Shown here piece after piece: positions 1 through 35,838 of a stretch of 35,838 nt of DNA; positions within the stretch are counted from its first letter, which is position 1, and each line of letters opens with the position of its first letter. The notes under the pieces are model-generated. The model made no database searches, was not told the DNA's origin, and saw only the letters and a list, made by a program, of their open reading frames with translations. The position numbers and the translations under genes are program-made. The stretch is from Deinococcales bacterium. GTDB taxonomy: Bacteria; Deinococcota; Deinococci; Deinococcales; JAAFIG01. The stretch lies in NCBI GenBank assembly GCA_043778225.1, contig JAYWGM010000026.1:1-35838 (forward strand), given 5' to 3'.

Positions 1-873
1 ATGCCAGTGGCTTGCGTCAAACTGCATAGTATCCCAGCCTTGTGGCTCGAGCCTTGCATCAAAAGTTTCGCCCATTAAAAAATCGGAAGCCCGAATCGCA
101 CCTGTGCTGACTTTCCATTTGTCCCATTCGCCACTCGAGGTGATGATTTGCTTTGAGCCGTCGGTCAGTTCAAGCTCGAGTTGTGCCAGAAGCTGAGGCA
201 ATGCGCCGTAATGCCGACGTTGGTGTTTGTAGCCAATAAACCCCGCAAACCAACCCTCGCCAAGAATTGCACCCAGAACATTCTGACCAACTTGAATATG
301 TTTGGTCACATCAAGCGTTTGATATTCGATACGCTTGGCATAATCCGTCCAACCGGGCGCAAGGGCTGCATCTCCAATCCGCCTGCCGTTCAAACTGGCG
401 ATATACAAACCTCGGGCAGTGATGTACAAACGTGCTTTGGCGATTGGTTGTGTCACCTCAAAACTCGAGCGTAAATACGGGGCTGGCAAAGGCTCATCGA
501 GCGTTATCCCAACCGTTGAATCAAAGCCAATCCACTGGGCTGACCAATCTGAAGGCTCGAGCAAACCCATTTCCCAAAAAGCCGTTTCGCTCCACTCGCA
601 TATTGTCTTGCTTTCATCCCAGACACGCACTTGCCAAGTGCAGTGCTGCCTCGAGATTAAGCCTAGACCAGCGTACTCGATTTGCGACATTTGGCTCGAG
701 GCAACTCGCCCAGAATCCCAAATAATCTGGTTATGGCTCGAGACTTGAATCTGATAAGCGATTTGTAGCACATTGCGGCGGCTTGACTCGAGCATCCAAC
801 TTAAACGCGGATTTGTTTCATCTATACCCAGTGGATTCTCGAGGTATTCGCAACGCAAGTTTGCAATTTTCAT
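1..873 (-). CDS. alpha-L-rhamnosidase, GH78 family, N-terminal part (runs off the window)
   Basis: Hand-translated from ATG 873, which overlaps the TGA of the upstream gene (ATGA): MKIANLRCEYLENPLGIDETNPRLSW...AYQIQV...WDSGRV...WQVRVWD...FWEMGLL..DWSAQWIG...APYLR..F...ARLYITARGLY...LAPGWTDYAKRIEYQTLDVT...GEGWFAG. This is the typical GH78 N-terminus. The frame is open to base 1, so the ORF track lacks it. Confidence 0.92.
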   Translation of the reverse strand, partial: MKIANLRCEYLENPLGIDETNPRLSWMLESSRRNVLQIAYQIQVSSHNQIIWDSGRVASSQMSQIEYAGLGLISRQHCTWQVRVWDESKTICEWSETAFWEMGLLEPSDWSAQWIGFDSTVGITLDEPLPAPYLRSSFEVTQPIAKARLYITARGLYIASLNGRRIGDAALAPGWTDYAKRIEYQTLDVTKHIQVGQNVLGAILGEGWFAGFIGYKHQRRHYGALPQLLAQLELELTDGSKQIITSSGEWDKWKVSTGAIRASDFLMGETFDARLEPQGWDTMQFDASHWH

Positions 874-1865
874 GATTGCACCTGTGGCGCGACAAGCGGT
901 AACTCGAGCCACGCCAAGCCAATGTCACGTTCCATATGCCATAAGTCCGAGCCAGTGTAGCCATCGTAGTAAATGGCTAGTCGGTTGCCGATTTTAAGCA
1001 CCGAGGGTAAACCAATAATGTTTTTTGACCAAGTGCAATTGCTCGAGTCTAGCACCACAGCTTTATTTTCTGGATTCCATTTGGTCAAATCTTGCGACCA
1101 ATAAACCCAAATGGCATCGGTGTACTCGGCTTTGGAGATGGGGTCTATGCCAATGTGGTTGGTAAATAAAAACCATGTGTTGCTCGAGGCTTCAAAGTAC
1201 AAACTGCTGTTTTCGACTTGCTCGGTTATCGGAAAAACCGGTTCGGTATCCACCACCCACGCACTGTTCAGGTCTTTAGTCCGAGCCAAGCCAAGGGTGC
1301 GTTTGATGCCATCGGCTTGGTGAACTGCGGCTGCAAAAAATATCAGGTATTCGCCTTGGTGCGCCACCACCATCCCCGGACTGGCAGTATCGGCATAAAA
1401 AGTATTCGGTACAGCCGCGACTGGAATAACACTGGGTTGCTTATGCCAAGTTCCATCGGCTGTTTCGGCTCGAGCCTTCAAGGTTTGGTACGGAAAAGCA
1501 GGTACTTTACCTGGCATTCCGACATTGGGTGTACCAAGGTAAAACATATGCCAAGTTGTGCCATCAAAAAAAGTCGTGCCATAACTGGTAGAAGCCGAAT
1601 CTGGTGTGCCAGCCGCACCTAACTCGAGAACCGCGCCTTGTTTTGTCCAAGTTAGACCATCGGGGCTGATTGCCAGTGCCGCCAGCCAACCGACTTCAGA
1701 CGCTGCATCGTAGTGCATATAAAAACGTTGGGTATCGGTAAAAACCCAGACATCTCGAGCATTAAATTGGTCTACTGTATCGCCGTGTCTCAGCACCACA
1801 CCAAAGTCCTGAGCCTCGAGCCGCAAAGTAGCATGGGGACGACCATCAATATAATTAGGCTGCAT
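870..1865 (-). CDS. five-bladed beta-propeller glycoside hydrolase-like protein (GH43/32/130-like fold), substrate unknown
   Basis: Repeated propeller-blade motifs (FYMHYDA, ISPDGLTWTK, WHMFYLG, GLARTKDLNSAW, SQDLTKW, LAIYYDG..DIGLA). AGGAG RBS upstream. Translationally coupled to the GH78 gene. Confidence 0.7.
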   Translation of the reverse strand: MQPNYIDGRPHATLRLEAQDFGVVLRHGDTVDQFNARDVWVFTDTQRFYMHYDAASEVGWLAALAISPDGLTWTKQGAVLELGAAGTPDSASTSYGTTFFDGTTWHMFYLGTPNVGMPGKVPAFPYQTLKARAETADGTWHKQPSVIPVAAVPNTFYADTASPGMVVAHQGEYLIFFAAAVHQADGIKRTLGLARTKDLNSAWVVDTEPVFPITEQVENSSLYFEASSNTWFLFTNHIGIDPISKAEYTDAIWVYWSQDLTKWNPENKAVVLDSSNCTWSKNIIGLPSVLKIGNRLAIYYDGYTGSDLWHMERDIGLAWLELPLVAPQVQS

Positions 1866-1946
1866 AAAACTCCTTACTCTGCACAGGGTGATAAATCCTA
1901 TGCTCGAGTTAATCTAAAACGCTGGTTGGATCTTAGTTCTCGAGCA

Positions 1947-2010
1947 ATTATATGTGCTTGAGCTAGACTCGAGAATGCCATGCGGTGCTAAAAAGATGTA
2001 CGATATTCCT
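1947..2010. promoter_or_regulatory. divergent AraC control region: two 21-bp-phased half-sites, target-operon -10 (TATAAT, minus 1947-1952) and regulator -10 (TACGAT, 1999-2004)
   Basis: The minus strand reads AGGA-N8-CAT then AGCA-N8-CAT 21 bp later, the geometry of E. coli araI1/I2. It aligns without gaps to 10339-10402. Confidence 0.65.
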
Positions 2011-2970
2011 GTGGCTTTTGTAAAATTGGAATCCCCGCACCCACCTTTTGCACCGTTTATTCATATAGCCCCGCGTCATGAACTTAAACACGCTGGTTAC
2101 TATGCGTGGCGGGTTCAGGGTACACATGATTGGTTACTTAAACACACCATTGCTGGACACGGACGATTTACTTATGAAGGCGGCGAAATTATCACCAAAG
2201 CTGGCGATGCGGTGCTGCTCAAACCGGGAACACGCCACGATTATGGTACGGCAGACCCCACAGCCTTGTCACATCCGCCAAGACAGGAGTTGTCACATCC
2301 GCCAAGACAGGAGTTGTCACATCCGCCAAGACAGGAGTTTTCACATCCGCCAAGACAGGAGTTGTCACATCCGCCAACATGGGAAGTGATTTGGGCGCAT
2401 TTTCGTCCACGCACCGAGTGGCTCGAGTGGCTCAACTGGCACGAAGTCGCATCGGGTGCAATGCACTTACACATCAGCGACCCAATAGACCGTAAACGCA
2501 TCGAAAAGCAATTGTTTGACATGAATCGCCTTGCCAGAAGCGATTCGCCGCGCCGTGAAGCCTTTGCAATGAATGCCCTCGAGAAAGCATTTTTGCTGTA
2601 TGACAAGCACAACCCAAATTTTGGCATCAAACACACCGACCCTCGGGTCTTGGCGGTTCTCGAGTACCTACAACAACACTTGACCAAAAAATTTCACAGC
2701 GCCCATTGTGTGGCAATCAGTGGATTATCGCAAAGTCGGTTGTATCATTTGTTTGGGCAACAAGTCGGGCAGAGTCCACAAGAACATTTAGAGTTGTTGC
2801 GAATCGAAAAAGCCAAGCATTTACTCGAGCAAACCCGCAGCACGATTCAAGATATTGCTTTAGCGCTTGGTTTTACCGACCCCTTGTATTTTAGTCGGCG
2901 TTTTAAGCACCGCACAGGCTTTAGTCCACGAGAATACCGAGAATCCATGTCCAACCGTGAGCAATGGTGA
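2011..2970 (+). CDS. AraC-family transcriptional regulator (arabinose-binding-like cupin plus double HTH) with an in-frame 8-aa repeat insertion
   Basis: C-terminal SRLYHLF..Q.G.SP...LRIEKAKHLL...IQDIALALGFTDPLYFSRRFKHRTGFSPREYR. Clear paralog of 9469-10338. Start reassigned to GTG 2011 from the conserved upstream context (TACGAT-attcct-GTG vs TAGAAT-aatcct-ATG). Confidence 0.9.
   Translation: MAFVKLESPHPPFAPFIHIAPRHELKHAGYYAWRVQGTHDWLLKHTIAGHGRFTYEGGEIITKAGDAVLLKPGTRHDYGTADPTALSHPPRQELSHPPRQELSHPPRQEFSHPPRQELSHPPTWEVIWAHFRPRTEWLEWLNWHEVASGAMHLHISDPIDRKRIEKQLFDMNRLARSDSPRREAFAMNALEKAFLLYDKHNPNFGIKHTDPRVLAVLEYLQQHLTKKFHSAHCVAISGLSQSRLYHLFGQQVGQSPQEHLELLRIEKAKHLLEQTRSTIQDIALALGFTDPLYFSRRFKHRTGFSPREYRESMSNREQW
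2266..2377 (+). repeat. 24-bp tandem repeat, 4 full copies plus a 16-bp partial, encoding (L/F)SHPPRQE
   Basis: TTGTCACATCCGCCAAGACAGGAG at 2266, 2290, 2314 and 2338 (one G>T change), partial copy at 2362-2377. Confidence 0.97.
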
Positions 2971-2976
2971 AGCTGT

Positions 2977-4065: not shown

Positions 4066-4075
4066 GAATGGATAG

Positions 4076-4090
4076 TGTAAGCGCTTCCCA
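4076..4090. promoter_or_regulatory. LacI-type operator overlapping the lacI promoter (minus -10 TACACT 4074-4079, 8 nt from the ATG)
   Basis: TGTAAGCGCTTCCCA matches the LacI-family TGNAANCGNTT pattern and the perfect site at 4252. Confidence 0.65.
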
Positions 4091-4206
4091 ACATAAAGTA
4101 CAAGTTGTTGTTTTCTTAACTAAAAGGTTTGTTTCTCTATATCCATCTTGTAGAACAGGATTTTTTGAATTTATAATAAGAATCAGGATGCTCTTTAGCG
4201 CGAGGC

Positions 4207-4236: not shown

Positions 4237-4251
4237 CTTTTTACTAATCCA

Positions 4252-13921: not shown

Positions 13922-15220
13922 ATGAAAATTACCAATATAACGACTCGAGATATTCGTTTTCCGACTTCCAAGCACTTAGATGGTTCGGATGCCATGAACC
14001 TAGACCCTGATTACAGTGCAGCCTATGTGATACTGCACACTGACTCGAGTTTAACGGGACATGGACTAACCTTTACCATTGGACGCGGTAACGAGATTGT
14101 GGTGGCGGCAATGCAGGCGCTTAAACCACTGATTGTTGGGCATACGCTCGAGGAATTTACGGCTGACATGGGCAAGTTTTATCGGCACATGACCTCAGAT
14201 TCGCAGCTTCGTTGGGTTGGTCCCGAAAAAGGTGTGATGCACCTTGCCACAGCCGCGATCATCAACGCTGTTTGGGATTTGTGGGCGAAACTCGAGGGTA
14301 AACCACTTTGGAAATTACTGGCAGACATGACCCCTACCGAATTGGTGCGTTGTATAGATTTTCGTTACATCACCGATGCTCTAAGCCCATCAGAAGCGCT
14401 CGAGATTTTAACTAAACTCGAGCCAACCAAAGCAGTCAGAACCACGCAGATGCTTGAGCAGGGTTTTCCGGCTTATACCACTGGCGCGGGTTGGCTTGGC
14501 TATTCGGACGATAAAGTAAAGTTCTTATGTCGTGAGGCTCTGGCGGATGGTTTTAAGCACATTAAAATTAAAGTCGGGAGTAATCTCGAGGCGGATATTC
14601 GCCGCGCTGCGCTTATCCGCGAGGAAATCGGTTGGGATAATTTTTTGATGGTGGATGCCAACCAAGTTTGGGATGTGCAGGAAGCGATAGATTGGATGCA
14701 GCACTTGGCGGTCTTTAAGCCGCTCTGGATTGAAGAACCGACCAGCCCTGATGATATTCTGGGTCATGCGACCATTGCCAAGGCGATGCAGCCTTACGGA
14801 ATTGGCGTGGCGACTGGCGAAATGGGTCAGAACCGAGTTTTATTTAAGCAATTGCTGCAAGCCAAGGCGATTGCTTTTTGCCAAATAGATGCAACTCGAG
14901 TCGGTGGAGTCAACGAAAACTTAGCGGTGCTGCTGATGTGCGCTAAGTTTGGCATTCCAGTCTGTCCGCACGCGGGTGGTGTTGGCTTATGCGAGTACGT
15001 GCAGCACCTAAGTATTTTTGATTACATTGCTGTTTCGGGTTCACTCGAGAACCGTGTGATTGAATTTGCCGACCATTTGCACGAGCATTTTGTTGACCCT
15101 TGCATCGTTAAAAACGGGCATTATCTTGTGCCAAGTGCATCTGGATACAGTGCTGAAATAAAAAGCGCCTCGCTCGAGGAGTTTGAATTTCCAACAGGTA
15201 AGGCTTGGAAAGTTGTATGA
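13922..15220 (+). CDS. fucD: L-fuconate dehydratase (enolase superfamily, rTS-beta/ENOSF1-like)
   Basis: DIRFPTS..LDGSDAMN.DPDYSAAYV, SDSQLRWVGPEKGVMHLATAA, KIKVG, MVDANQVW, WIEEPTSPDD, ATGE and VCPHAGGVGLCEYVQH are diagnostic of this family. Confidence 0.92.
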   Translation: MKITNITTRDIRFPTSKHLDGSDAMNLDPDYSAAYVILHTDSSLTGHGLTFTIGRGNEIVVAAMQALKPLIVGHTLEEFTADMGKFYRHMTSDSQLRWVGPEKGVMHLATAAIINAVWDLWAKLEGKPLWKLLADMTPTELVRCIDFRYITDALSPSEALEILTKLEPTKAVRTTQMLEQGFPAYTTGAGWLGYSDDKVKFLCREALADGFKHIKIKVGSNLEADIRRAALIREEIGWDNFLMVDANQVWDVQEAIDWMQHLAVFKPLWIEEPTSPDDILGHATIAKAMQPYGIGVATGEMGQNRVLFKQLLQAKAIAFCQIDATRVGGVNENLAVLLMCAKFGIPVCPHAGGVGLCEYVQHLSIFDYIAVSGSLENRVIEFADHLHEHFVDPCIVKNGHYLVPSASGYSAEIKSASLEEFEFPTGKAWKVV

Positions 15221-18200
15221 CACAGCCATTTGGTCGTCCAAATAAACTCGGGACTCGAGCCGAATTGCTGGCGCTTTTTCAAAATCCAAGTCTGGATTTC
15301 GCAGCAATTTCGTTTTTCTTCTGGAATGGCGAGGCTATCACCAAGGAACGCCTTTCTTGGCAACTCGAGCAACTAAGTTCAAAAGGTGTTGGTGGCACGA
15401 TTGTTAGTTATATTCACCAAGCCAATTTGGACATTGATAACAGCGACCCGCCCGTATTTTCTGCCATGTGGTGGGAATTATTTGTCTGGTTTATCGCAGA
15501 ATCCAAACGGCTTGGTATGAAAGTTGGCATTCAGGATTACTGCATTGTCAACCCGATTCTCGAGCAATTAGCCGTGGATTTCCCCGAGTTGCGCGGCGCA
15601 TCGCTCGAAAAAATCCATCTCGAGGCAACTGGGGCTGGTGCGGTTAAACTCGAGCTTCCCGAGACGGCGGTGCTGGTTTCGATTCGGGCTTTTCCTCGAG
15701 TTGAGGCTGGGCTGGATTCGGGGACTTCGCTGGATTTGCAATCTTTGGTGCATGAATCAAAACTCGAGTGGACTGCGCCGAACGGTTTATGGACTGTGGT
15801 GGCTGTCTACGCCTCGCCAAAAGGTTTTAGTCCGCTCCACCCAACTTCGGGCGCTCGAGCCATTGAACGGCTTTACACGCCATTTGAAACGCATTGTGCC
15901 AACGAAATCGGACAGACATTAGCCGTTTTTTTTCAGGATGAACTTGATTTTGGCAATCGAATGCCGCGTTGGTCGCCCGAAGTTCTAGCAGAATTCAAGC
16001 AACGCAAAGGTTACGACCTCGAGCCTGAACTGGCAGCGCTGTGGTTTGATTTAGGCGCACGCACCAGTAAAATCCGCATTGATTATGCCGATGTGATTAC
16101 GCAACTCACCGAAGACCATTATTTCAAACCAGTCTTTACCTGGCACGAACAACACGGGACTTTATTTGGACACGATAACCTCGGGCGTGGCGATATTACC
16201 GAGAGCCTGAGCGCTTACGGCGATGCGATGCGTACCATGCGTTGGTATTCTGCGCCCGGCAGCGACGACCCGCATCTCGAGGGTAAACGGCGTTTTATGG
16301 GTTTTAAGGTCAACAGTTCAATCGCTCATTTGTACGAACGACCCCGAGTTTGGAACGAAGGCTTTTACGGCAGTGGTTGGGGAGTCACACCCGCCCAGTT
16401 ATTAGCCGCCCTGAACGAAGATTTCGCCTATGGTGTGACACTTTTTAATCCTCATGCGGTTTACTACACCACGCTGGGTGGATGGTGGGAATGGGCACCA
16501 CCCGATTTTCATTTCCGTCAACCGTACTGGAATATGACCGCGCCATTCTGGACGTACATCACCCGAATAAGTGCGGTTCTCTCGAGCGGGCATCATCGTT
16601 GTGATGTGGCGATTTTGTACCCCAGTACCGACCTCGAAGCAGGATTCACTGATGCTGTTGCCTGCGCCGAAGAACTTGGGCGGAATCTTTTTGACACTGG
16701 GCTGGATTTTGATTTTCTGGACTTTGAATCCTTGGCTCGAGCCACCATCGAAAACTCGAGTCTTAACGTGTCTAACGAACAATACCGTGTGCTGATTTTC
16801 CCAAATGTTCAGGCGGTGCGCTTCTCGACTTTAGAGCAAGCACTAAGTTTCAAACGCGCTGGTGGCATTGTTCTGGCACTAGGTTGTATTCCAACTTGCA
16901 CCGACCGTCTTGGTAGTCACGACCCAGAAATGCAGGCGATACTCGAGGAGTTGTTTGCTGGTTTTACACCTACTATAGACACGGTTATCAGCACCATTAA
17001 CGCCAATCTCGAGCGAGATTTTATTCCCGACCAAGCCAATGTATGCGTTTTACATCGGGTGATTGGGCAACAAGATTTGTACTTTGTGTTGAATAAAAGT
17101 TCGGAACAAAAAGCCGTTGCGCCGTTGTTTCGCAATCTTGGACAAGCCGAAATTTGGGATGCGTGGACAGGCACAACCCAGACTGCTCGAGGTTGCAGCC
17201 AAGAAAGCAATTATCAACGTGTTCCTTTGATGCTCGAGCCTCATGCTGCCCAAGTGGTTGTTTTTGATCGCACCCAAGTTGCTGTGCAATTGCAGGCAAC
17301 TCGAGAAACCATTGTCAATCGGCTTAGATTAAATCAAGATTGGGCATTTGAACTTGTGCCTTTACTCGATAATCGCCACGGTGATTTCAGACAACCAGCC
17401 AGTTTTGAACCACTGAAACCCGAATTGCGTCATTTCAAATGCTTAGAAGCCTTGCCCGAAGAAGACTGGTCAGCCGCAACTGTCAACGATGCAGCTTGGC
17501 AAGAGATTCTGGCAGATTACGGCACGCATTTCTGGCAGTTAGAACCCGTCCCAGAAAACACCAATCTCGAGTCCTTAGAGCAAATCTTGCTCAGTCTCGA
17601 GCAAATTAATCCGCAAGAAAAACTTGAATGGAATGGGTTGTCGTTGGGCTGGAAAGAATACGCGTACTCGGAGCGTTTTGGCATTGAACACGACCCATTA
17701 CTTTCGCATTGGCTCACAGGTCCGCATGGCTTAAAAGGACAAGTGCCAGACGAATACCTCGATGTGACCCAAGGCGAGCCAAGCACTGCCCAAAACGGTT
17801 ATGTGTACCTCTGGACAACTTTTGAAAACACAAAACCAATGTATTTGAATGCCAAAAGCCGAGCCTCATATTGCCTTTGGTTAAATGGTCAGGTTGTTCT
17901 CGAGCAACCACATAGTTTGGGCGCAGCCCATTACGCCCCTTGGGACATTCCAATTTACGACGCACCAACACTAAAAACACAGGTTGCAAATGCCCAACAT
18001 AAGGTTTTACTGCGCTTAAAACTCGAGCCTATTCAGCGCACTCGAGCCAGTTTAAGCATTCAAGCCATACCAAACCCAGAATCTCGAGGACTGGAATTGG
18101 TTGCCAATGGTTTTAATCATCGTCCAAATCAAAATAAGCAAATTACATGGTTGCGTTGCCTGACACCACCCGGTACGAATAATTTGCAAATTCATGTGCG

Positions 18201-18762
18201 CGGCACACTAAACGCTTGGCTTGACGGGAAAGCCCTTGAAACAGTCAGCACCAGCATCAACACCGATGGCTCGAGAAGCATTGAACTGAAAACCAATATG
18301 CCCCCCGAACAAGCCTCGGTGCTTGCCTTACGCATCCAAGCCGACGCTGGACATTATGGTGGCAGTGTCCTGACCCGACCCATTACTTTCGATTGTCATG
18401 CTAAAACCGTACCACTTGGCGCTTGGGCAGATTTTAGCTTAAACACCTACTCGGGCGGGGCAAAATACCAGCAAATCATCAACCTCGAGCCACTCAAAAC
18501 AGGTCAAAGACTCGAGTTGCACCTTGGGGAAGTGATTGCGGCTGCCGAAATTATGGTCAATGGAATCAGTGCAGGTATTTTACTGACCGCACCTTGGAGC
18601 ATAGACATCAGCGACCATGTACAGGCTGGTCAGAACACCCTCGAGATTGTGGTTGCCAACACCATTGCCAACGAATTTTCGGATGCACCTTCGCCTTATG
18701 TTAATCCCGCACAGACCAAATCTGGATTATTCGGACCTGTAGAGTTGGTCTGGCTCGAGTGA
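15217..18762 (+). CDS. large glycoside hydrolase, GH106 (alpha-L-rhamnosidase)-like, with C-terminal beta-sandwich domains
   Basis: FFFWNG, FQDELDF, EFKQRKGYDL, SSIAHLYERPRVWNE, HAVYYT...WWEWAPP and C-terminal LHLGEV...VNG...APWSIDI...GQNTLEIVVANT...SGLFGPV. Start at ATG 15217 (ATGA overlap with fucD). Specificity is uncertain. Confidence 0.72.
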   Translation: MTQPFGRPNKLGTRAELLALFQNPSLDFAAISFFFWNGEAITKERLSWQLEQLSSKGVGGTIVSYIHQANLDIDNSDPPVFSAMWWELFVWFIAESKRLGMKVGIQDYCIVNPILEQLAVDFPELRGASLEKIHLEATGAGAVKLELPETAVLVSIRAFPRVEAGLDSGTSLDLQSLVHESKLEWTAPNGLWTVVAVYASPKGFSPLHPTSGARAIERLYTPFETHCANEIGQTLAVFFQDELDFGNRMPRWSPEVLAEFKQRKGYDLEPELAALWFDLGARTSKIRIDYADVITQLTEDHYFKPVFTWHEQHGTLFGHDNLGRGDITESLSAYGDAMRTMRWYSAPGSDDPHLEGKRRFMGFKVNSSIAHLYERPRVWNEGFYGSGWGVTPAQLLAALNEDFAYGVTLFNPHAVYYTTLGGWWEWAPPDFHFRQPYWNMTAPFWTYITRISAVLSSGHHRCDVAILYPSTDLEAGFTDAVACAEELGRNLFDTGLDFDFLDFESLARATIENSSLNVSNEQYRVLIFPNVQAVRFSTLEQALSFKRAGGIVLALGCIPTCTDRLGSHDPEMQAILEELFAGFTPTIDTVISTINANLERDFIPDQANVCVLHRVIGQQDLYFVLNKSSEQKAVAPLFRNLGQAEIWDAWTGTTQTARGCSQESNYQRVPLMLEPHAAQVVVFDRTQVAVQLQATRETIVNRLRLNQDWAFELVPLLDNRHGDFRQPASFEPLKPELRHFKCLEALPEEDWSAATVNDAAWQEILADYGTHFWQLEPVPENTNLESLEQILLSLEQINPQEKLEWNGLSLGWKEYAYSERFGIEHDPLLSHWLTGPHGLKGQVPDEYLDVTQGEPSTAQNGYVYLWTTFENTKPMYLNAKSRASYCLWLNGQVVLEQPHSLGAAHYAPWDIPIYDAPTLKTQVANAQHKVLLRLKLEPIQRTRASLSIQAIPNPESRGLELVANGFNHRPNQNKQITWLRCLTPPGTNNLQIHVRGTLNAWLDGKALETVSTSINTDGSRSIELKTNMPPEQASVLALRIQADAGHYGGSVLTRPITFDCHAKTVPLGAWADFSLNTYSGGAKYQQIINLEPLKTGQRLELHLGEVIAAAEIMVNGISAGILLTAPWSIDISDHVQAGQNTLEIVVANTIANEFSDAPSPYVNPAQTKSGLFGPVELVWLE

Positions 18763-22066: not shown

Positions 22067-22986
22067 GATTTTTCTGCTCCTGCAATCATGCCTTCGCGCA
22101 CAAATCGCTGCGAGAATAAGAACACCAGCAATATCGGAATGGCAATCATTAAGCCAGCCAAGGCAACTTCAGGGCGTTTGATAGGTAAGTCGTTGATGTT
22201 GCTTGGGTTTACTGCGCCTGTGCTGTTGAGGAGCGTTGCAAGCCCGACAGGCAGGTTATAAAGTCGGTCGTCGGTGATTAAAATAAATGGCAAGAAATAA
22301 TTGTTCCAATTGGCAACAAAGGCAAAAAAAGCAATTAAAGAAACCACTGGCGCAGCCAGCGGCAGCGCAATTCGGGTGAACACCTGAAATTCAGTTGCGC
22401 CATCCATGCGAGCCGCATTGAGCAGGTCTTTAGGAATGGTGGTTGAAAAGAAAATAAAAGCAAGGTACACCCCAAATGGGAAAAATCCACCGGCAATAAT
22501 CATGCCAAAATAAGTGTTGGTCAGTTTAAGTGCGTTAAACTCGAGAAAAAGCGGTAAGGTACTGGCAGCACTGGGGATAATCATCGTGATTAAAGTCATA
22601 ATCAGAATCAGTCGGCGTGGTGCAAAGTCGGACATCGCAAGGGCATAACCCGCCGGTATTGAAACCGCCAAATTAAGCAGTAATCCGCCCAGCACATAAA
22701 AAATAGAATTGTAAACCCATGAAACCATCTGATAATTATTGAACGAAACAAGGTTATTCCAAGTCAGCACAAGCCGTTCAAACGAACCCAAGGCAAGTGG
22801 TGGTAATTCGATCAACTGGTCTTGGCTTTTGGTCGGGGCAATCAGTAACCACAGCAATGGCACGACAAAAAACACGGCAAAACTGAGCAGCACTAAAAGC
22901 CTTGGGCTGTCGCTCAGTAGACTAAACAGCGGATTGACTCGGGCTTTTTTAGGGCGGCTCGAGTTGCGAACAATGATTCGGCTCAT
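22063..22986 (-). CDS. carbohydrate ABC permease (MalG-like)
   Basis: DLLNAARMDGATEFQVF, NWNNYFLP and LPVGL. Confidence 0.92.
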   Translation of the reverse strand: MSRIIVRNSSRPKKARVNPLFSLLSDSPRLLVLLSFAVFFVVPLLWLLIAPTKSQDQLIELPPLALGSFERLVLTWNNLVSFNNYQMVSWVYNSIFYVLGGLLLNLAVSIPAGYALAMSDFAPRRLILIMTLITMIIPSAASTLPLFLEFNALKLTNTYFGMIIAGGFFPFGVYLAFIFFSTTIPKDLLNAARMDGATEFQVFTRIALPLAAPVVSLIAFFAFVANWNNYFLPFILITDDRLYNLPVGLATLLNSTGAVNPSNINDLPIKRPEVALAGLMIAIPILLVFLFSQRFVREGMIAGAEKS

Positions 22987-23882
22987 GCCTCTGTCCTGTA
23001 AAAATCGGTTTTGAAAATCATGATTAAGGCAATAATAATTCCAGCCAACATCAGCAGGCTCGAGAGGGCAGCCCCAGCCCCAAAATTACCAAGCCCAAAA
23101 GCGTAGGTGTATGCCAGTTGGTTGGGTGTCCAATTGGTGGTGGCAATCGTGCCAGAACTGGCAGCACTGATAATTTGGGGTTCGGCAAACAACTGAAAAC
23201 CACCCGAGAAAGAAAGTATCAGCATAAAAATCACGTTTTTGATAATCAAAGGCAGTTTAATTCGCCATGCCAATTGCCAGTTGTCACAACCATCTATGCG
23301 GGCTGCCTCGAGAATTTCTTGGGAGATTCCACTCAAAGCACCGCTCATGACCACAATCCAGCCGCCAGCCCCGGAAGTGAATGCCATCAGCGCAAAGACG
23401 GTCGGTAAACCAATTTTATTGACCACGCCAAAAACATCGCCTTGATTTAAGGGCGCAAGTGCAAAGGCAAAAGGGCTAACGCTTGGGTCGAGTACCGACA
23501 ACCACAAAAGCACCACGGCTGTGCCAGAAACCGCGCCCGGTAAGTAATAAATGCTGCGTAGACCATTGGAAAAACCACCTGGGCGAACATCGAGTAAAAA
23601 AGCAATCAACAGCACCCCAAGCACCATCATCGGTAGCCAAATAGCAATATAAGAAAGCACGTTCAGAACAGTTTGGAAAAAGCGGTAATCGGTTAGCACG
23701 GTCATATAATTTGTTAAACCCACAAAGGCTTTTTTAGAGCTTAAAAAACTTAGTACCAGTGCATAAATGGTCGGTGCAATACCAACCACCAAGAGTAAAA
23801 TTAGGTACGGTAAGGCAAAAAAGTAGGGTGTTACATTTATTCTCTTTTTTAATTTTAGGGTATTCACAAGGTTTATTCTCAC
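22983..23882 (-). CDS. carbohydrate ABC permease (MalF-like)
   Basis: FVGLTNY and EILEAARIDGC. GTG start with GGAGG RBS. Confidence 0.9.
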   Translation of the reverse strand: MRINLVNTLKLKKRINVTPYFFALPYLILLLVVGIAPTIYALVLSFLSSKKAFVGLTNYMTVLTDYRFFQTVLNVLSYIAIWLPMMVLGVLLIAFLLDVRPGGFSNGLRSIYYLPGAVSGTAVVLLWLSVLDPSVSPFAFALAPLNQGDVFGVVNKIGLPTVFALMAFTSGAGGWIVVMSGALSGISQEILEAARIDGCDNWQLAWRIKLPLIIKNVIFMLILSFSGGFQLFAEPQIISAASSGTIATTNWTPNQLAYTYAFGLGNFGAGAALSSLLMLAGIIIALIMIFKTDFYRTEA

Positions 23883-24103
23883 TTAACTACCTCCCCGAAT
23901 TTTCTAGCGTTTTTTACTAGAAAATTCCGACTAACAGGAGCAGGGATGACGTGTCTATCGCTGTAATGAAGGAATTGCCGTTTTTTGAAAATTCCAAAAT
24001 GTAGGTGATAGACACTTATTTTGACTCGAGGGACGGGGGGCTTAGACCCATCCCTCTCGAGGAGGAAAGCAGCCCTAAAAGTAGCTTAGGGCTTAAAAAG
24101 AGG

Positions 24104-25393
24104 TTAGCGAGTGGTGACTTGGTAGCCACTGGCTCTTGCCAGATTGACCATTTCGGTTTGCACGGCTGGCAGGACAGCTTCGACTGATTTACCGTCTTTT
24201 ATAGCGGGTAGAATGTATTTTGTCATTGGTTCCCAGGCAGCGTAACGGGTGCTGGCTTGGGCTGGGGTGAGGTTGTTGGCGGCAGCTTTTAGGACTGGGT
24301 AGACATCGTTGGCGTAGTATTTATCGGCGGTCACTTTTTTGCCCCATAGGTCGGCACTTGGTAAATGGGCTGGGAAGGTTGGCGCATCGGTCTGGTTTTC
24401 TGGGCTGGTGGTCATCCAGAGCATGATGTCAACTGCGCCTTTAAGGTTCTTGGCTTTTTTCGAGACTCCAAATGCGCCGCCGCCCCAACCTGCGGTGTAG
24501 GTCGTGCGTTCATCGTTCCAACGCAACGGTGCAGCCGCACTGGTTTGACCGGCTGGCACTTTATAATTGGGTTTAATGATGTACTCGCCAAACCATGAAG
24601 CGGTTGGAATCATCAGTAAATTGCCTTCAGCAGCAATTTTATTAAAGGCTGGTTCAAATGGGCTGAGGCTGCTGAGGCTGCCAGCTTTGACCAGATTATC
24701 AATCATTTTGGCAACTCGAGTACATTTGACCGATGCCATGTTAATTCGCACACTGTTGGCGTTGGTTCTCGAGAGTTCAGAGATTGGGCAGTTACTGGCA
24801 TAGAAAAAATGCGAAATAATTTGCGGGTCGCCAAGTGTTCCAACCACTGTACCGGGGTGTTCTTTGGCGGCTCGTAAACCAAGGGCTTCGTATTCTTCCC
24901 ATGTTTTTGGAGCGGTGTAACCGTAGTCTTTCATCAGTTTGACGTTGTACCACAAAACATTTTGCGCTAAGTCGTTGCGTAAACAAAGCAGCTTGCCGCC
25001 GACGGTACAAAAACCGTTTGAGCCTTTGGCAAATTGATTTAGGGTTTTACTGGTCACGTAGTCTTTTAGGTGCAACAAGTAATCTATTTCTGGGTCGGCA
25101 AGTTGGGCGGGCATCGGTTGCGAACCCATAAAAATTACATCAGGGCTACCCGCACCAGCTTGGGTGGTCAAACGGATTTTTGCCACTTGTTCGCCTTGGT
25201 CTACCGTCACAATTCGCATTTTTACATCTGGGTGGATCTTTTGGTACATTTGGAAACCCGCTAAACGGGCTGGGTCGGTCCAGACCAGAATTTCTTCGCT
25301 TTGGGCGCTGGCAAACAATGCTGCGCTGGCAGCAGCGATACCACCAATAGTTAAGAGTGGTTTGAGCAAGGATTGACGACTAACTTTTGACAT
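24104..25393 (-). CDS. oligosaccharide ABC transporter substrate-binding protein (CUT1)
   Basis: AAGGAGG RBS before ATG 25393. Signal peptide ending ASA-Q. HPDVKMRIV, SPDVIF and RNDLAQNVLWYN motifs. Distant paralog of 10665-11987. Confidence 0.9.
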   Translation of the reverse strand: MSKVSRQSLLKPLLTIGGIAAASAALFASAQSEEILVWTDPARLAGFQMYQKIHPDVKMRIVTVDQGEQVAKIRLTTQAGAGSPDVIFMGSQPMPAQLADPEIDYLLHLKDYVTSKTLNQFAKGSNGFCTVGGKLLCLRNDLAQNVLWYNVKLMKDYGYTAPKTWEEYEALGLRAAKEHPGTVVGTLGDPQIISHFFYASNCPISELSRTNANSVRINMASVKCTRVAKMIDNLVKAGSLSSLSPFEPAFNKIAAEGNLLMIPTASWFGEYIIKPNYKVPAGQTSAAAPLRWNDERTTYTAGWGGGAFGVSKKAKNLKGAVDIMLWMTTSPENQTDAPTFPAHLPSADLWGKKVTADKYYANDVYPVLKAAANNLTPAQASTRYAAWEPMTKYILPAIKDGKSVEAVLPAVQTEMVNLARASGYQVTTR

Positions 25394-25473
25394 AATGATT
25401 CCCTCCTTGGGATGAACAAAGAACAACACGAGGCGCTGCCAGATTGAGGTTCAATAGATATTTGGACTACAAA

Positions 25474-30455: not shown

Positions 30456-31594
<1,139 letters not shown>

Positions 31595-31607
31595 ATTATT
31601 AACTTAC

Positions 31608-31680
31608 AAGGTGCATCTTTAGGGTCAAGACAGGTGCGCGTTTGTGGTCAAGAGAGGTGCGTGTTTAGGGTCAAGAATAG
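31608..31680. repeat. three 23-bp tandem units abutting the IS110 left end (L arms of nested mini-elements)
   Basis: aag-GTGCATCTTTAGGGTCAAGA-cag-GTGCGCGTTTGTGGTCAAGA-gag-GTGCGTGTTTAGGGTCAAGA-atag. Confidence 0.9.
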
Positions 31681-31733
31681 GAGTAATAACGATACCAAAT
31701 TTACGCGTGAACGACAGTTCGACCTGCTTTTTG

Positions 31734-31771
31734 CGACCCAAGCCCGTAAGGTGCTGCTTTCAGGGTCAAGA
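31734..31771. repeat. free, uninterrupted copy of the mini-element (empty IS110 target site)
   Basis: CGACCCAAGCCCGT-aag-GTGCTGCTTTCAGGGTCAAGA, i.e. R arm, core and L arm joined. Confidence 0.85.
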
Positions 31772-31799
31772 TGGTCAAACGAGAGTGATTAAGTTAATT

Positions 31800-31808
31800 T
31801 GGTATGAT
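31800..31808 (+). promoter_or_regulatory. extended -10 promoter for the phyH-araC pair
   Basis: TG-G-TATGAT. Confidence 0.45.
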
Positions 31809-31948
31809 AGTAGCTTTGAGGGCTGCATACTACAAGAGGCTAAAGGCAATAATATCAATTTTGTGCTATTCAATGCAGAGCTTTAGGCTAACACCTTATC
31901 AGTCAGTTCAAGCACACTGATGATGTTCAAAAAATAAGGAGTCCAATT

Positions 31949-32713
31949 ATGAATAAAACAGCTTTTACTGTCAGTGAGGCAATGAAACAAACTTATCGGC
32001 GCGATGGTTTTGTTCACGTTCCCAGTATTATCAACCCTGAAGAAGCCAGTGCTTTTCGGCTTGCGGCGCTTGCGGCAACCGAACGCCTTGGCGCAATTTC
32101 TGACAATGCGATGTTCAGGCAATCGGTCAATGTCTGGCGCGAAGATGACCAAATGGCAGCCTTGACCACCCACCCGAATATCGCGGCAGCCGCCGAACAA
32201 TTGGCAGGGGTTGCTTTGCGCTTATGGCACGATCAAATTCTGATTAAACCAGCCCTCAACAGCAAACCCACCGAATTTCATCAAGACCAACCGTACTGGC
32301 CTCATTCGCAATCGACCCACCCGATCAGCGCTTGGATTGCACTGGTGGATGTACCCGTCGAGCGTGGCTGTATGACCTTTATCGCTGGCGCTCAAGGCAG
32401 AACCGAACTCCCGCCTTCTAATTTGGCTGCCCAACGAGGCTTATTTGACCTCGCACCAGACCTAATTTGGGAGCAACGTATTACTGTGCCATTAAAAGCT
32501 GGCGATTGTACTTTTCATCATGGGCGCTGCCCGCACATGGCAACCCCTAATTTTACCGAAGAAGCTCGAGTTGCCCATGTGGTTATTTTTGTGGATGCAG
32601 CCACTATTTACAATGGCTTGAGCCATGTTGTGACCGACCCACTCGGGCTTGTGGCAGGGAGTCTGCTAGAAGGCGAGATGTTTCCACTGGCTCAATCATT
32701 CTTAGACCAATAA
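31949..32713 (+). CDS. phytanoyl-CoA dioxygenase (PhyH) family Fe(II)/2-oxoglutarate dioxygenase
   Basis: YRRDGFV, LWHDQILIKP, FHQDQPYW (HxD), WIALVD...GCM and AGDCTFHH...H.....N....R. AAGGAG RBS. Confidence 0.9.
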   Translation: MNKTAFTVSEAMKQTYRRDGFVHVPSIINPEEASAFRLAALAATERLGAISDNAMFRQSVNVWREDDQMAALTTHPNIAAAAEQLAGVALRLWHDQILIKPALNSKPTEFHQDQPYWPHSQSTHPISAWIALVDVPVERGCMTFIAGAQGRTELPPSNLAAQRGLFDLAPDLIWEQRITVPLKAGDCTFHHGRCPHMATPNFTEEARVAHVVIFVDAATIYNGLSHVVTDPLGLVAGSLLEGEMFPLAQSFLDQ

Positions 32714-32724
32714 CTTACTGTACG

Positions 32725-33582: not shown

Positions 33583-33588
33583 GTGGGA

Positions 33589-34458
33589 TTACAAAAGCCG
33601 TGTTTGCCGACGAAATACTTGTGGCGATTGACCAACTACTCGTTTGAAAAGTTTGGAGAAGTGAAACGGGTCTACAATTCCAATCTGAGCGGCGATAACA
33701 TAAATCGGCAAGGTTGTACTGCACAATAATTGCTTGGCTTTTGTAATCCGTGTTGCTGTCACCCAAGCACTTGGGGTAGAAGCACTAAACTGCTTAAATA
33801 AGCGGTGAAGACTGGCAGGGCTGCACTCAGCCACTCGAGCCAGTTCTGGTATGGTCAGGGTTTTTTGAAGATTGGCTTTGACGTAATCCTGAATTTTTCG
33901 TAAGGCAACTGGAATACTGACTAAATAATCAACTTTTGTGTGCGCCACAATCAATTCCTCGAGCAGCAAAGTGGCTAAAGCCCGCATTGGTTTTTCGGCA
34001 ACCGATTCGCCAATAAAACGCCCAACGATGTAATGTGCCAGTAAGCGCAAAGTTGGCGTTTGCACAAGTGAACCTTGTTGGATTCCCACGAGTTCTGACC
34101 AATCCCAATCTGTTCTCCAAGGGCTTTGTGCCAATGGGTCGTCTGGGTCGTGTGCCACAGAAAAATCAATATTTTTCGACAGATGATAATCTGGAATCAA
34201 GTGTATCCCGCCAACCCGAAATGTTTGTTCTGGGTCGGCTTCATAAAGCATTTCGCGCCCCCAAGGGAGAAACAAATAGTCTTCTGGCTCGAGCCGATAC
34301 CATTGTCCATTGACTCGTACCCTTCCTTTACCATGAACTGCCCACAACAACATTCGGCTTTGAACACATGGCTGGGCGATACGTTCGGCTTTTCTAAACT
34401 CAAACCAATTGGCAAGCACAATCACAGGACAAGGATTCATTCTGACAGAAATATACAT
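33589..34458 (-). CDS. AraC-family regulator (start could be ATG 34440)
   Basis: LARVAECSPASLHRLF...IAAQIGIVDPFHFSKLFKRVVGQSPQVFR. Divergent from the second phyH gene. Confidence 0.9.
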   Translation of the reverse strand: MYISVRMNPCPVIVLANWFEFRKAERIAQPCVQSRMLLWAVHGKGRVRVNGQWYRLEPEDYLFLPWGREMLYEADPEQTFRVGGIHLIPDYHLSKNIDFSVAHDPDDPLAQSPWRTDWDWSELVGIQQGSLVQTPTLRLLAHYIVGRFIGESVAEKPMRALATLLLEELIVAHTKVDYLVSIPVALRKIQDYVKANLQKTLTIPELARVAECSPASLHRLFKQFSASTPSAWVTATRITKAKQLLCSTTLPIYVIAAQIGIVDPFHFSKLFKRVVGQSPQVFRRQTRLL

Positions 34459-34516
34459 CCTATGATGGTTTTGGCTATGGTCAATTGGTGCTTTGGGCTT
34501 TTATCATGCTGCAATC

Positions 34517-35437
34517 ATGACACCAGCTTCTGAACAAATGCTTGACTCATCATCGCTGCTCGAGCAACCGAGTTTGCTACAAGCCCAAGCCAAACAAGAC
34601 GGGTATCTTTTTTTTCGAGGACTTTTACCTGTGCCTGATGTCTTGGCGCTACGGGCTGACTTTCTCGAGGTTGTTGACCATCAAGGCTGGCGCACCGCAG
34701 GTCAGGATAAATTTGGAGACCATGTAGAAAAAACGGTCATTGACCAAACACCCTCCGATCAAATGCGACTCGACATTGGTGTGGGCATTGCAGCCTACAA
34801 CGATATTCAACGTCTCGAGCGTCTGCATCGTTTACCGCATCATCCTCAATTGCTGGCGCTTTTCACAACCCTTTTTGGCTGCAATCCGTTTGTTCATCCG
34901 CGCCATATCGCAAGGATGGTCACACCGCATCGTGACATGATTGCCACTCCGATTCATCAGGATTTTCCACTGATTCAAGGCAGTCAGAACACTTGGACGT
35001 GCTGGTTTCCGCTAGGCGATTGCCCTCGAGAACTGGGTGGATTAAGTGTATTGCGTGGCTCACACCACAACGGTTATTTACCCGTACAAACTACGGCTGG
35101 CACTGGAGGCATCGAAGCTCAACTGTGCGAGCATGAAACCGATTGGCTCGAGACCGATTATCACTGTGGAGATGTACTGATTTTTCCGTGCTTTACAGTC
35201 CACCGAGGTATCAAGTCTGTTTTCAAAGACCGTATTCGGTTATCGCTGGATGTGCGTTACCAACCAGACAATGAACCCATCGAAGCCAAATCACTCTTGC
35301 CTCACTGCGACTTGACTTGGCACGAAATCTATGCGAATTGGCAAAGTACCGATTTGCAGTATTACTGGGAGTCTTTGAAGCTCGAGCCTAGCCCGTGGAA
35401 TCCAGAATTATTTGTACCAAGCCAACGAATTTGCTAA
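34517..35437 (+). CDS. phytanoyl-CoA dioxygenase (PhyH) family Fe(II)/2-oxoglutarate dioxygenase
   Basis: DGYLFFRGLL, TPIHQDF (HxD), WTCWFPLGDCPRELGGL.VL.GSH, GDVLIF...TVH and RLSLDVRYQ. Likely start ATG 34517, no RBS. Confidence 0.9.
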   Translation: MTPASEQMLDSSSLLEQPSLLQAQAKQDGYLFFRGLLPVPDVLALRADFLEVVDHQGWRTAGQDKFGDHVEKTVIDQTPSDQMRLDIGVGIAAYNDIQRLERLHRLPHHPQLLALFTTLFGCNPFVHPRHIARMVTPHRDMIATPIHQDFPLIQGSQNTWTCWFPLGDCPRELGGLSVLRGSHHNGYLPVQTTAGTGGIEAQLCEHETDWLETDYHCGDVLIFPCFTVHRGIKSVFKDRIRLSLDVRYQPDNEPIEAKSLLPHCDLTWHEIYANWQSTDLQYYWESLKLEPSPWNPELFVPSQRIC

Positions 35438-35583
35438 GAGGTTTTCATGATTTAACGCCTGCTTGAAAAACGTGCTGGATAAACTGAATTCGTTCGCTAA
35501 CTTGAAATTCACTGCCGCCTTTATGATTGTTGTATCAATAAATTCGGATAGACTACCCACATACAGGTCAACTGATTTTCCAT

Positions 35584-35630
35584 AAACGCGGTGCGCCTTG
35601 AGAGGTTTTCTCGAGTGACGCACTGCGTTT
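35584..35630 (-). terminator. hairpin downstream of the tRNA operon
   Basis: AAACGCGGTGCG...CGCACTGCGTTT inverted repeat with an inner CTTGAGA/TCTCGAG stem. Confidence 0.6.
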
Positions 35631-35639
35631 TTTGGCTTT

Positions 35640-35715
35640 TGGTGATCCCAACGAGACTTGAACTCGTGTCTGCGCCTTGAGAGGGCACCGTCCTAGACCG
35701 CTAGACGATGGGACC
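35640..35715 (-). tRNA. tRNA-Glu (anticodon CTC)
   Basis: GGTCCCATCGTCTAGCGGTCTAGGACG-GTGCC-CT-CTC-AA-GGCGC-AGAC-ACGAG-TTCAAGT-CTCGT-TGGGATC-ACCA forms a 76-nt cloverleaf with CCA. Confidence 0.95.
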
Positions 35716-35762
35716 ATCGTGGGTGGTGCAAGCCTATTCGAGGCGGACGTTCTCGAGAGCTT

Positions 35763-35836
35763 TGGCTGGGGAACGTGGATTTGAACCACGATAAACAGAT
35801 CCAGAAACTGTTGTCCTGCCATTAGACGATTCCCCA
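35763..35836 (-). tRNA. tRNA-Gln (anticodon CTG)
   Basis: TGGGGAATCGTCTAATGGCAGGACA-ACAGT-TT-CTG-GA-TCTGT-TTAT-CGTGG-TTCAAAT-CCACG-TTCCCCA-GCCA, 74 nt. Confidence 0.93.
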
Positions 35837-35838
35837 CC

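Follow-up and report, generated by a model that had tools for sequence, protein, structure and literature searches.

The window, i.e., the whole stretch of 35,838 bases analysed here, is strewn with the palindrome CTCGAG, which runs through enolase-superfamily and GH106-like genes and an IS110-family transposase gene (Table 1). The exact regular-expression count of 185 sites, with 20 of them at positions ≤2000, matches the manual count of an earlier reading made from the letters of the window. About 7.7 copies are expected from base composition (computed by hand), giving an observed/expected ratio (O/E) of about 24. No hexamer is more frequent in the window than CTCGAG, and the runners-up are its own overlaps, e.g., ACTCGA (74). 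Sites within called open reading frames (ORFs) number 97, 32, and 35 in frames 0, 1, and 2, respectively. Another 21 lie outside called ORFs, five of them within a truncated ORF at 1-912. The enolase-superfamily and GH106-like stretch is 80% identical to its homologous stretch in another genome (G009) and is an example of the CTCGAG load within ordinary sugar-utilisation genes. The transposase gene carries its sites (30763, 30796, 30927, 30959, 31014, and 31163) at the host density.

Table 1 Features of the window related to CTCGAG
Feature	Positions	Strand	Basis or remark
Dispersed CTCGAG array, 185 sites	1..35838		5.2/kb; no conserved flank past six bases
Densest stretch singled out by the sequence-only reading, 20 sites in 2 kb	1..2000		Site count
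Enolase-superfamily and GH106-like genes, sites in all three frames	13922..18762	+	ORFs, Pfam, site positions
IS110-family transposase gene, 6 CTCGAG in 1 kb	30456..31466	-	Pfam PF01548/PF02371
Longest CTCGAG-free stretch of the window, 1.4 kb	31164..32564		Gap between sites 31163 and 32565

The source genome, an assembly of 107 contigs with 4,029,277 bases, contains 24,877 CTCGAG against 931 expected (O/E 26.7). CTCGAG is its top hexamer at 6.2/kb, i.e., one per about 160 bases. The over-representation of about 20-fold claimed by the sequence-only reading is borne out in both window and genome, and it extends beyond a single contig, with 4.0-7.6 sites per kb on each of the 88 contigs of at least 10 kb. 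Under a maximal-order Markov expectation, the genome-wide O/E is 1.16, which is uninformative because the excess is carried by the word's own 5-mers.

Genes were called with our own ORF-based set (3,531 ORFs of at least 100 aa, 90% of the genome). In these ORFs, CTCGAG falls 13,221, 4,514, and 4,667 times in frames 0, 1, and 2, and the Leu-Glu frame accounts for 59% of the coding sites. Intergenic DNA (414,040 nt) holds 2,531 copies (O/E 32), at a density nearly equal to that of coding DNA (6.11/kb vs 6.21/kb). The density is also uniform relative to gene starts, gene ends, and coding status. Sites in intergenic DNA and in all three frames, as earlier described from the window, are therefore found genome-wide. 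It had also been argued that codon or dipeptide preference could not suffice, and shuffling agrees. A synonymous-codon shuffle within genes, which preserves the protein, its dipeptides, and per-gene codon usage, left 2,372 ± 37 coding sites (10 replicates) of the 22,402 observed, a 9.4-fold difference with 89% of the sites removed. A codon-order shuffle (5 replicates) left 1,068.

The word has reshaped the proteome, in which the O/E of Leu-Glu (LE) is 2.33, against 0.97 for EL, and that of SS is 1.58; CTCGAG encodes 69% of all LE. RpoC contains 18-31 LE in the host family, i.e., the family of the source genome, vs 13-20 in motif-free relatives, and many of these LE occupy positions with other residues in the latter. 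CTCGAG encodes 20 of 26 LE in RpoC, where 0.6 would be expected from codon use elsewhere. In Thermus-like high-GC relatives, observed and expected numbers in RpoC are close (10 vs 7.5; 12 vs 8.0), and the moderate densities of such genomes follow codon usage. This agreement, together with the predominance of the Leu-Glu frame, is what could be said for the excess being a by-product of codon usage, of dipeptide preference, or of a dispersed repeat containing CTCGAG. The chance of such an artefact is practically nil, given the losses in the synonymous shuffle, the intergenic excess, the RpoC codon comparison, and the lack of a conserved flank. Base composition within ±10 bases of the 24,877 sites is flat, which also rules out a dispersed repeat element (REP/MITE) with a CTCGAG core. 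No extended consensus was found genome-wide among eight-base extensions or within ±10 bases; the eight-base extensions have 243 to 2,132 copies, the sole low one being CCTCGAGG.

The genome-wide median spacing of sites is 117 bp. Copies less than about 60 bp apart interfere with each other, and occupancy is flat over spacings of 60-300 bp, which leaves short-range interference alone; the idea of a regular spacing or a spacing optimum was dropped. Apart from the 3-bp signal of codons and some weak peaks, pair distances up to 1.2 kb show no periodicity. The interference is most simply a by-product of palindromy, as two adjacent copies would form an inverted plus a direct repeat, liable to hairpins and slippage. 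The genome has 19 CTCGAG-free gaps longer than 1.5 kb (1.5-5.6 kb). Their GC content is 0.31-0.47, mostly <0.40, and in every case below that of the genome (0.487). The 1.4-kb gap in the window is much shorter than these low-GC motif-free islands. Among viral contigs, the best 25 motif-rich of the 84 long loci listed are all GC-rich (0.58-0.73), and most of these 25 are also rich in GAGCTC.

Retention of sites was measured on 213 kb of alignments, at positions with conserved amino acids and at three divergence levels. The probability that CTCGAG is kept was 0.83, 0.81, and 0.72, against 0.43, 0.34, and 0.28 for control hexamers. For instance, between G003 and G005 (5.8% divergence), 28 of 318 CTCGAG of G005 (8.8%) are non-sites in G003, whereas 25.2% of control hexamers differ. 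An LE that is a non-site in one genome is a site in the other in 43, 53, and 68% of cases as divergence rises. At the greatest divergence, this 68% nearly equals the probability of finding a site opposite a site (72%). Between genera, conserved Leu-Glu positions keep a stationary occupancy of about 70%, and a compatible position, whatever its ancestry, reads CTCGAG for about 70-78% of the time.

The single-mismatch neighbours, of which a depletion had been anticipated, show no strong depletion when compared with G151, a relative free of the motif. Transition neighbours reach 0.86-1.06 of its level (CTTGAG 0.86, TTCGAG 1.04) and transversion neighbours 0.47-1.20. By our arithmetic, the ratio of sites to neighbours departs from that in G151 by a factor of about 27 when the neighbour is a transition and of about 50 when it is a transversion. 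Every mismatch type is disfavoured, T:G being just one of them. Compensatory turnover was not seen, with 4 pairs within 150 bp vs 4.3 expected in a comparison of low power. Divergence in the flanks is 10.3% at differing CTCGAG sites and 8.4% at differing control hexamers; imported tracts are therefore not evident. In rpoC, five of seven site differences spanned several bases. Over 67.6 kb, the excess of such multi-base differences was modest (23 of 58 vs 24% in controls), and concerted rewriting of sites was dropped as an explanation.

Across 364 surveyed genomes of the phylum, CTCGAG is enriched in all 19 of the host family and in three from the base of the sister family (G149, G150, and G032). 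Among genomes with the trait, rpoC third-position GC spans 0.46 to 0.92. The trait is missing in G151, a close relative whose RpoC is 82% identical to that of G150, and in all 111 genomes of a Deinococcus-like genus (g7; 0.01-0.36/kb). No clear fossil of a former Leu-Glu excess was seen in G151, where LE (1.29) is comparable to IE (1.30) and LD (1.16), so that, on LE, loss is indistinguishable from never having had the trait. A somewhat doubtful possibility is that CTCGAG, as the word of a drive, was already ancestral to both the host family and the basal part of the Deinococcus family. G151 and Deinococcus proper would then have lost it, and the latter would have come to avoid it.

CTCGAG is thus held at about 6/kb by a force on the precise hexamer that persists throughout the lineage. 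This force is felt equally within genes, whatever the frame, and between them, and it doubles Leu-Glu in the proteome. Because every departure from CTCGAG is disfavoured, whatever the mismatch, the force probably operates on whole alleles. Its strength would correspond to a population-scaled bias of about 3.5-5. A site-by-site adaptive benefit could hardly produce a bias this strong and this uniform at 25,000 sites, which makes a drive likelier than classical selection.

Tentatively, and as the likeliest of the mechanisms considered although possible rather than probable, we propose that CTCGAG is kept by a DNA-uptake and/or recombination drive of natural transformation, acting through a hypothetical reader protein. 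A sequence-biased DNA uptake and/or recombination step would lead to the preferential transmission of fragments or alleles with CTCGAG. Uptake sequences in Pasteurellaceae and Neisseria are known to work in this way, and the same has lately been proposed for HIP1, the highly iterated palindrome of cyanobacteria. HIP1 has been reported to increase transformation efficiency and has lately been put forward as an uptake signal. ComEC was found in 11 of 12 genomes and pilin-like N_methyl genes in all 12. ComEC and pilin clusters also occur in motif-free G151 and in the motif-free Deinococcus-like genus, and their presence or absence is therefore uninformative. No specificity factor for CTCGAG uptake was found. 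The flat occupancy between 60 and 300 bp speaks against an uptake drive, under which saturation would be expected if one site per fragment sufficed, as does the failure to see compensatory turnover and imported tracts.

Methylation-linked biased repair (Elhai-type or Dcm/Vsr-like) is unlikely. In this model, CTCGAG would be marked by a methyltransferase of that specificity, and a nuclease guided by methylation or context would mend mismatches toward the word. The model would predict the flat, neighbour-independent occupancy beyond 60 bp, as expected of a local, site-by-site bias, and about 22 methyltransferase-like genes are present in G000. Moreover, HIP1 and alternate HIPs are reported to co-occur with cognate methyltransferases (PMC4390886), and methylated CTCGAG occurs in nature, as reported for Halorubrum and hot-spring community genomes. 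The sequence-only reading had likewise linked the word to a conserved cognate (XhoI/PaeR7I- or TaqI-like) methyltransferase. This link found no support, as a search with five Pfam families and BLAST clustering for orthologs revealed no methyltransferase ortholog common to G000, G006, G010, G011, and G013, a result that covers orthologs within these five families. The search turned up no m5C enzyme in G010 and G002, and no beta-class methyltransferase in G002, G014, or G013 (a closed genome). An m5C enzyme accompanied by a conserved neighbour does occur, but solely in genus g1. As for nucleases, the XhoI family (PF04555) is present in none of the 19 host-family genomes; G021, outside the family, has such a gene with an adjacent beta-class methyltransferase. 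Since the word is enriched rather than avoided, an XhoI-type restriction-modification target was rejected as well. Vsr was found in none of the 10 host-family genomes searched and neither of two HIP-positive g19 genomes, but only in G032, and MutH in one of the 10 (G003). T:G-specific patch repair does not fit transition neighbours that are undepleted and transversions that are disfavoured at least as much. A Vsr-type very-short-patch product was rejected on the lack of Vsr, on G010 without an m5C enzyme, and on the levels of CTTGAG and TTCGAG.

Two other readings appear improbable, each about as much as the other. Under direct selection, an abundant protein of the nucleoid-associated or chromosome-organising kind would bind CTCGAG as a dimer, and each site would be kept for that role. 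The palindrome fits a dimeric reader, the density is uniform across the gene landscape, and the range of the interference is similar to a protein footprint, although the hairpin and slippage liability of paired palindromes also explains the latter. A nucleoid role and selection were favoured for HIP1 by Xu et al. 2018 (PMC5861425). However, no candidate protein was found, compensatory turnover was not seen, and the estimated bias would be hard to sustain at each of 25,000 sites through individual fitness effects. Alternatively, a sequence-specific nuclease could act among the chromosome copies of a polyploid cell, with gene conversion biased to CTCGAG and no transformation involved. Deinococcus, Thermus, and cyanobacteria are polyploid, and an advantage at the level of the allele over all mismatch types, as well as the stationary occupancy, would be in line with such a drive. 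Nevertheless, cutting at CTCGAG would remove the word, not spread it, and the reading is wholly inferential, no such nuclease having been identified.

HIP1 has puzzled biologists for three decades and was treated as peculiar to cyanobacteria. CTCGAG is a second, independent, and denser case of a highly iterated palindrome in another phylum, with informative contrasts: no conserved methyltransferase, a wide range of third-position GC, and a close relative free of the motif, which makes the question of the word's reader tractable by comparative genomics and biochemistry. The phylum survey, the absence of a shared methyltransferase, the stationary occupancy, the short-range interference, and the disfavour of all mismatches are new. 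If the proposed transformation drive is true, the palindromes of two unrelated, transformable, polyploid phyla would have one explanation, and the reader protein would best be sought in this lineage, which offers a relative that lost the trait naturally. In practice, CTCGAG flags foreign DNA in these genomes and skews the codon, dipeptide, and k-mer statistics used by binning and annotation tools.

Several known systems invite comparison. CTCGAG has the same six bases as the XhoI/PaeR7I restriction-modification site. Restriction sites are normally avoided in genomes, a pattern that fits the Deinococcus-like genus g7; the host family shows the opposite and has no XhoI-family gene. In E. coli, the Dcm/Vsr system raises CCWGG through a bias of repair linked to methylation of this palindrome, but the effect is small and T:G-specific, in contrast to a 27-fold excess that involves all mismatch types and arises without Vsr or a universal m5C enzyme. 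The uptake sequences USS and DUS are non-palindromic, 9-12 nt long, and spaced at about 1/kb, and their uptake bias has been shown experimentally. CTCGAG is a 6-nt palindrome at 6.2/kb with no extended consensus. Nevertheless, in both cases a short word is spread genome-wide, the encoded peptides are about doubled (LE and SS here), genes that have no homologs in relatives are devoid of the word, and the lineage encodes competence genes. For the uptake sequences, Findlay and Redfield 2009 (PMC2817400) reported such a doubling, foreign genes without the motif, and sites at poorly conserved residues; the low-GC motif-free gaps and the use of variable RpoC positions are the counterparts here.

The closest parallel is HIP1, GCGATCGC, of cyanobacteria (Elhai 2015, PMC4390886; Xu, Lawrence, Durand 2018, PMC5861425). 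The excess in all frames and between genes, and the presence of the trait in every genome of the family, support the HIP1-like, lineage-wide, DNA-level phenomenon proposed by the sequence-only reading, and CTCGAG can be called a highly iterated palindrome. Both are short GC-containing palindromes, 15- to 300-fold over-represented in genic and intergenic DNA, retained between genomes past neutral expectation, missing from foreign DNA, and lineage-wide with exceptional members lacking the word. For HIP1, a chromosome-scale periodicity of 10-90 kb has been reported (Xu et al. 2018, PMC5861425). Unlike HIP1, CTCGAG has no conserved cognate methyltransferase that we could find. It belongs to another phylum, is another word of six bases instead of eight, and is about 2-20 times denser, at 4,300-8,600/Mb vs the 300-2,700/Mb given for HIP (PMC4390886).

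CTCGAG is the most over-represented hexamer of the source genome (G000), with 24,877 copies against 931 expected in 4,029,277 bases and 107 contigs (O/E 26.7), and the runners-up are its own overlaps (O/E 5.6-9.2). The window, contig C26 of G000, holds exactly 185 copies, and its first 2 kb account for 20; base composition predicts about 7.7 in the whole window (hand arithmetic). These figures agree with the manual counts of the sequence-only reading (about 185 and about 20). Confinement to one contig, which that reading had considered, does not apply, as 88 of 88 contigs of at least 10 kb carry 4.0-7.6 copies per kb. The classes CYCGRG and CTYRAG show no enrichment as classes in G000; the enriched word is therefore precisely CTCGAG. 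It contains 68% of the 36,442 TCGA tetramers, and the remaining palindromic NTCGAN words are almost missing (TTCGAA 34, GTCGAC 49, ATCGAT 224). No extended consensus was seen, the composition being flat over 10 bases on each side. As a separate observation, other palindromic hexamers are almost purged from G000 (O/E of at most 0.1 in 34 of 64). Its 4 Mb contain 131 GGCC and a single copy each of AGGCCT, GACGTC and GGGCCC. The purge is also found in G150, G006 and G003, not in G032 (5 of 64) or G151 (3 of 64).

The excess is not a coding artefact. With genes called from ORFs for this analysis (3,531 ORFs, 90% of G000), the density is 6.21 per kb in coding and 6.11 per kb in intergenic DNA, where the O/E is 32. 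Coding copies number 13,221, 4,514 and 4,667 in frames 0, 1 and 2, and the occurrence in all three frames and between genes noticed earlier is thus confirmed. A within-gene shuffle of synonymous codons, which alters neither the encoded protein and its dipeptides nor the codon usage of each gene, leaves 2,372 +/- 37 of the 22,402 observed sites. The earlier argument that codon or dipeptide preference is insufficient therefore stands. Gene starts, bodies and stops alike carry about 6 copies per kb, with a slight increase just upstream of stop codons. At the window end, two tRNA genes are flanked by copies and contain none.

Proteins are reshaped by this DNA word. Leu-Glu is the most over-represented dipeptide of the G000 proteome (19,108 vs 8,208 expected, 2.33-fold), while Glu-Leu has an O/E of 0.97. 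CTCGAG encodes 69% of all Leu-Glu, and it fills 69%, 56% and 42% (frames 0, 1 and 2) of the positions able to hold it with the protein unchanged. From codon use outside the motif, about 2% of Leu-Glu would be predicted as CTCGAG; hand arithmetic puts the odds in favour of the word at about 100 to 1, which corresponds to a scaled bias near 4.6, and the intergenic excess matches a bias of about 3.5.

The sites both turn over and are maintained. Codon alignments of G000 with close, middle and distant family members (213 kb) were compared where amino acids are conserved. A frame-0 CTCGAG recurs at the matching position of the other genome in 83%, 81% and 72% of cases, respectively, and other hexamers are identical in 43%, 34% and 28%. 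Of the Leu-Glu that lack the word in one genome, 43%, 53% and 68% have it in the other, so that between genera the occupancy of Leu-Glu, about 70%, is almost memoryless. It reflects a stationary process rather than conservation by descent. Over 67.6 kb, the family members G003 and G005 (5.8% divergence) have 290 sites in common, besides 28 and 30 present in one of the two alone; of the G005 sites, 8.8% lack the word in G003, vs 25.2% of control hexamers differing. The non-site allele is one, two or three bases away from CTCGAG in 35, 14 and 9 cases. With G000 as polariser, the differences suggest losses in 30 cases and gains in 17, a count skewed to losses because G000 is itself mostly occupied. 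Many Leu-Glu of the family RpoC are Val-Ala, Arg-Val, Thr-Asp, Glu-Glu and similar in motif-free relatives. The depletion of single-mismatch neighbours that the sequence-only reading had proposed to look for was not strong: relative to G151, of equal GC content, G000 has transition neighbours at 0.86-1.06 and transversion neighbours at 0.47-1.20, and the site-to-neighbour ratio is shifted for all mismatch types.

INTERFERENCE between copies was seen in G000, where occupancy of Leu-Glu positions varies with how close the nearest neighbouring copy lies. It is 31% at 6-12 bp, 48% at 12-20 bp, 63% at 20-30 bp, 68-71% at 30-60 bp and a flat 75-79% at 60-300 bp. The effect is similar in frames 1 and 2; the trend is also present in G003, G005 and G006 and weaker in G150 and G032. 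This short-range effect accounts for there being too few short and long gaps compared with random occupancy. The gap deficits, with occupancy flat from 60 to 300 bp, are not taken as evidence of a spacing optimum. The simplest cause would be a hairpin or slippage liability, because two copies of a palindrome form an inverted and a direct repeat together; a protein footprint is the alternative. A spacing of 6 bp, which would generate GAGCTC (24 in total in G000), never occurs. Spacing of exactly 7 bp (CTCGAGNCTCGAG, a 13-base palindrome) was observed in 123 cases, vs 30-53 for 8-11 bp.

Within the phylum, all 18 other family genomes (five genera) carry 4.3-6.8 copies per kb. A survey of 364 genomes, one of which (G325, unpublished) bears no claim, identified carriers in the sister family: G149 (8.6 per kb), G150 (7.0) and G032 (3.6). 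G151, congeneric with G149 and G150, has only 0.3 per kb, and the Deinococcus-like genus g7 avoids the word (111 of 111 genomes at 0.01-0.36 per kb). The calls for G150, G032 and G151 were confirmed on samples of 92-400 kb. Leu-Glu O/E is 2.35, 2.12 and 1.29, respectively, with 83%, 70% and 7% of Leu-Glu as CTCGAG against codon-usage expectations of 11%, 20% and 8%; the O/E of CTCGAG itself in the G151 sample is 1.1. G151 thus serves as a natural trait-negative control. Its genome (2.3 Mb, 5 contigs; loci L192-L211, L188) has kept ComEC and pilin clusters. Judged from RpoC, a single gene, the 2-3.5 copies per kb of several high-GC genera look largely codon-driven (CTCGAG-encoded Leu-Glu 10 vs 7.5, 12 vs 8.0 and 9 vs 5.0 expected). 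RpoC is colinear with the beta-prime chains (1,524 residues) of PDB 1l9u and 1iw7, which we take to be Thermus enzymes (2,100 bits, vs at most 1,318 bits for matches to other bacteria), in keeping with a position in Deinococcota. In a tree built on RpoC, the sister group of the family is (((G150, G151), G149), G032) plus g7. On this topology, the trait would either go back to the common ancestor, with losses in G151 and g7, or have arisen by two gains with one loss; parsimony favours neither.

Other features of the window were recorded (see table). The repeat of about 140 bp has many copies (74-83% identity) on at least 12 other contigs of G000 and in 7 of 7 other genomes of the genus, and matches zero Rfam families at the gathering threshold. 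The IS110-family element has the motif density of its host and is therefore either long resident or mobile only within the lineage.

Coordinates of features (window positions unless genome and contig are named)
Feature	Position	Strand	Remark
Enolase-superfamily gene	13948-15208		Second copy at G000:C82:10456-11716, 84% DNA identity
Repeat of about 140 bp	23872-24030		Intergenic between ORFs 22983-23882 and 24104-25429
IS110-family transposase gene	30456-31466	-	CTCGAG at 6 sites per kb
CTCGAG copies flanking the tRNA genes	35610 and 35752
Two tRNA genes	35643-35715 and 35766-35836 (-)
m5C methyltransferase (about 335 aa)	G000:C33:16107-17105		Conserved ORF adjoining downstream (locus L023)
Beta-class methyltransferase next to XhoI-family nuclease	G021:C1:75199-76562		Loci L144, L097

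The force on CTCGAG that these comparisons show is persistent, exact-word-specific, context-independent and acts on alleles; we infer a drive, in preference to adaptive selection on each site separately. Sequence-biased DNA uptake or recombination may keep the word abundant. This mechanism is placed first, as a tentative proposal that is itself rather unlikely. Methylation-linked biased repair, placed second, is unlikely. Methylated CTCGAG has been reported in Halorubrum and hot-spring genomes, in passages silent on abundance, and G000 encodes about 22 DNA-methyltransferase-like genes, most of which contain the word at 3-7 per kb. A conserved cognate methyltransferase, for which the earlier reading had proposed a search, did not emerge among matches to five Pfam models; some m5C and beta-class genes of some genomes had no locus. 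Clustering of the loci of the best 30 m5C and best 30 beta-class matches, with all gamma and alpha matches of five-genome panels, gave zero orthologs common to G000, G006, G010, G011 and G013. No m5C enzymes were found in G010 (91% complete, zero candidates) or G002, and no beta-class enzymes in G013 (one contig), G014 or G002. An m5C methyltransferase with its neighbouring ORF (see table) occurs in 7 of 8 genomes of genus g1, the other genera being without it.

As for nucleases, the XhoI family has no match in the 19 family genomes; its sole occurrence is outside the family, in G021, beside a beta-class methyltransferase that shares no more than about 31% identity with family enzymes. Homologs of this G021 methyltransferase (62-64% identical) occur in G022 and G027. 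None of 10 family genomes yielded Vsr, which turned up only in G032, and MutH was found only in G003. A binding-site function of CTCGAG seems quite improbable, and the same low probability is given to other conversion drives.

A literature search returned no report linking CTCGAG to highly iterated palindromes or to palindrome over-representation in genomes. For HIP1, the highly iterated palindrome of cyanobacteria, published work describes a link to a methyltransferase (Elhai 2015, PMC4390886), selection and periodicity (Xu et al. 2018, PMC5861425), methylation-dependent enhancement of transformation (Kamoku and Nielsen 2024) and an uptake-signal hypothesis (Rodriguez-Cruz et al. 2026). For uptake sequences, Findlay and Redfield (2009, PMC2817400) report that the tripeptides they encode are doubled, that they are absent from genes without homologs and that they are located at poorly conserved residues. 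The pattern they describe is the one seen for CTCGAG.
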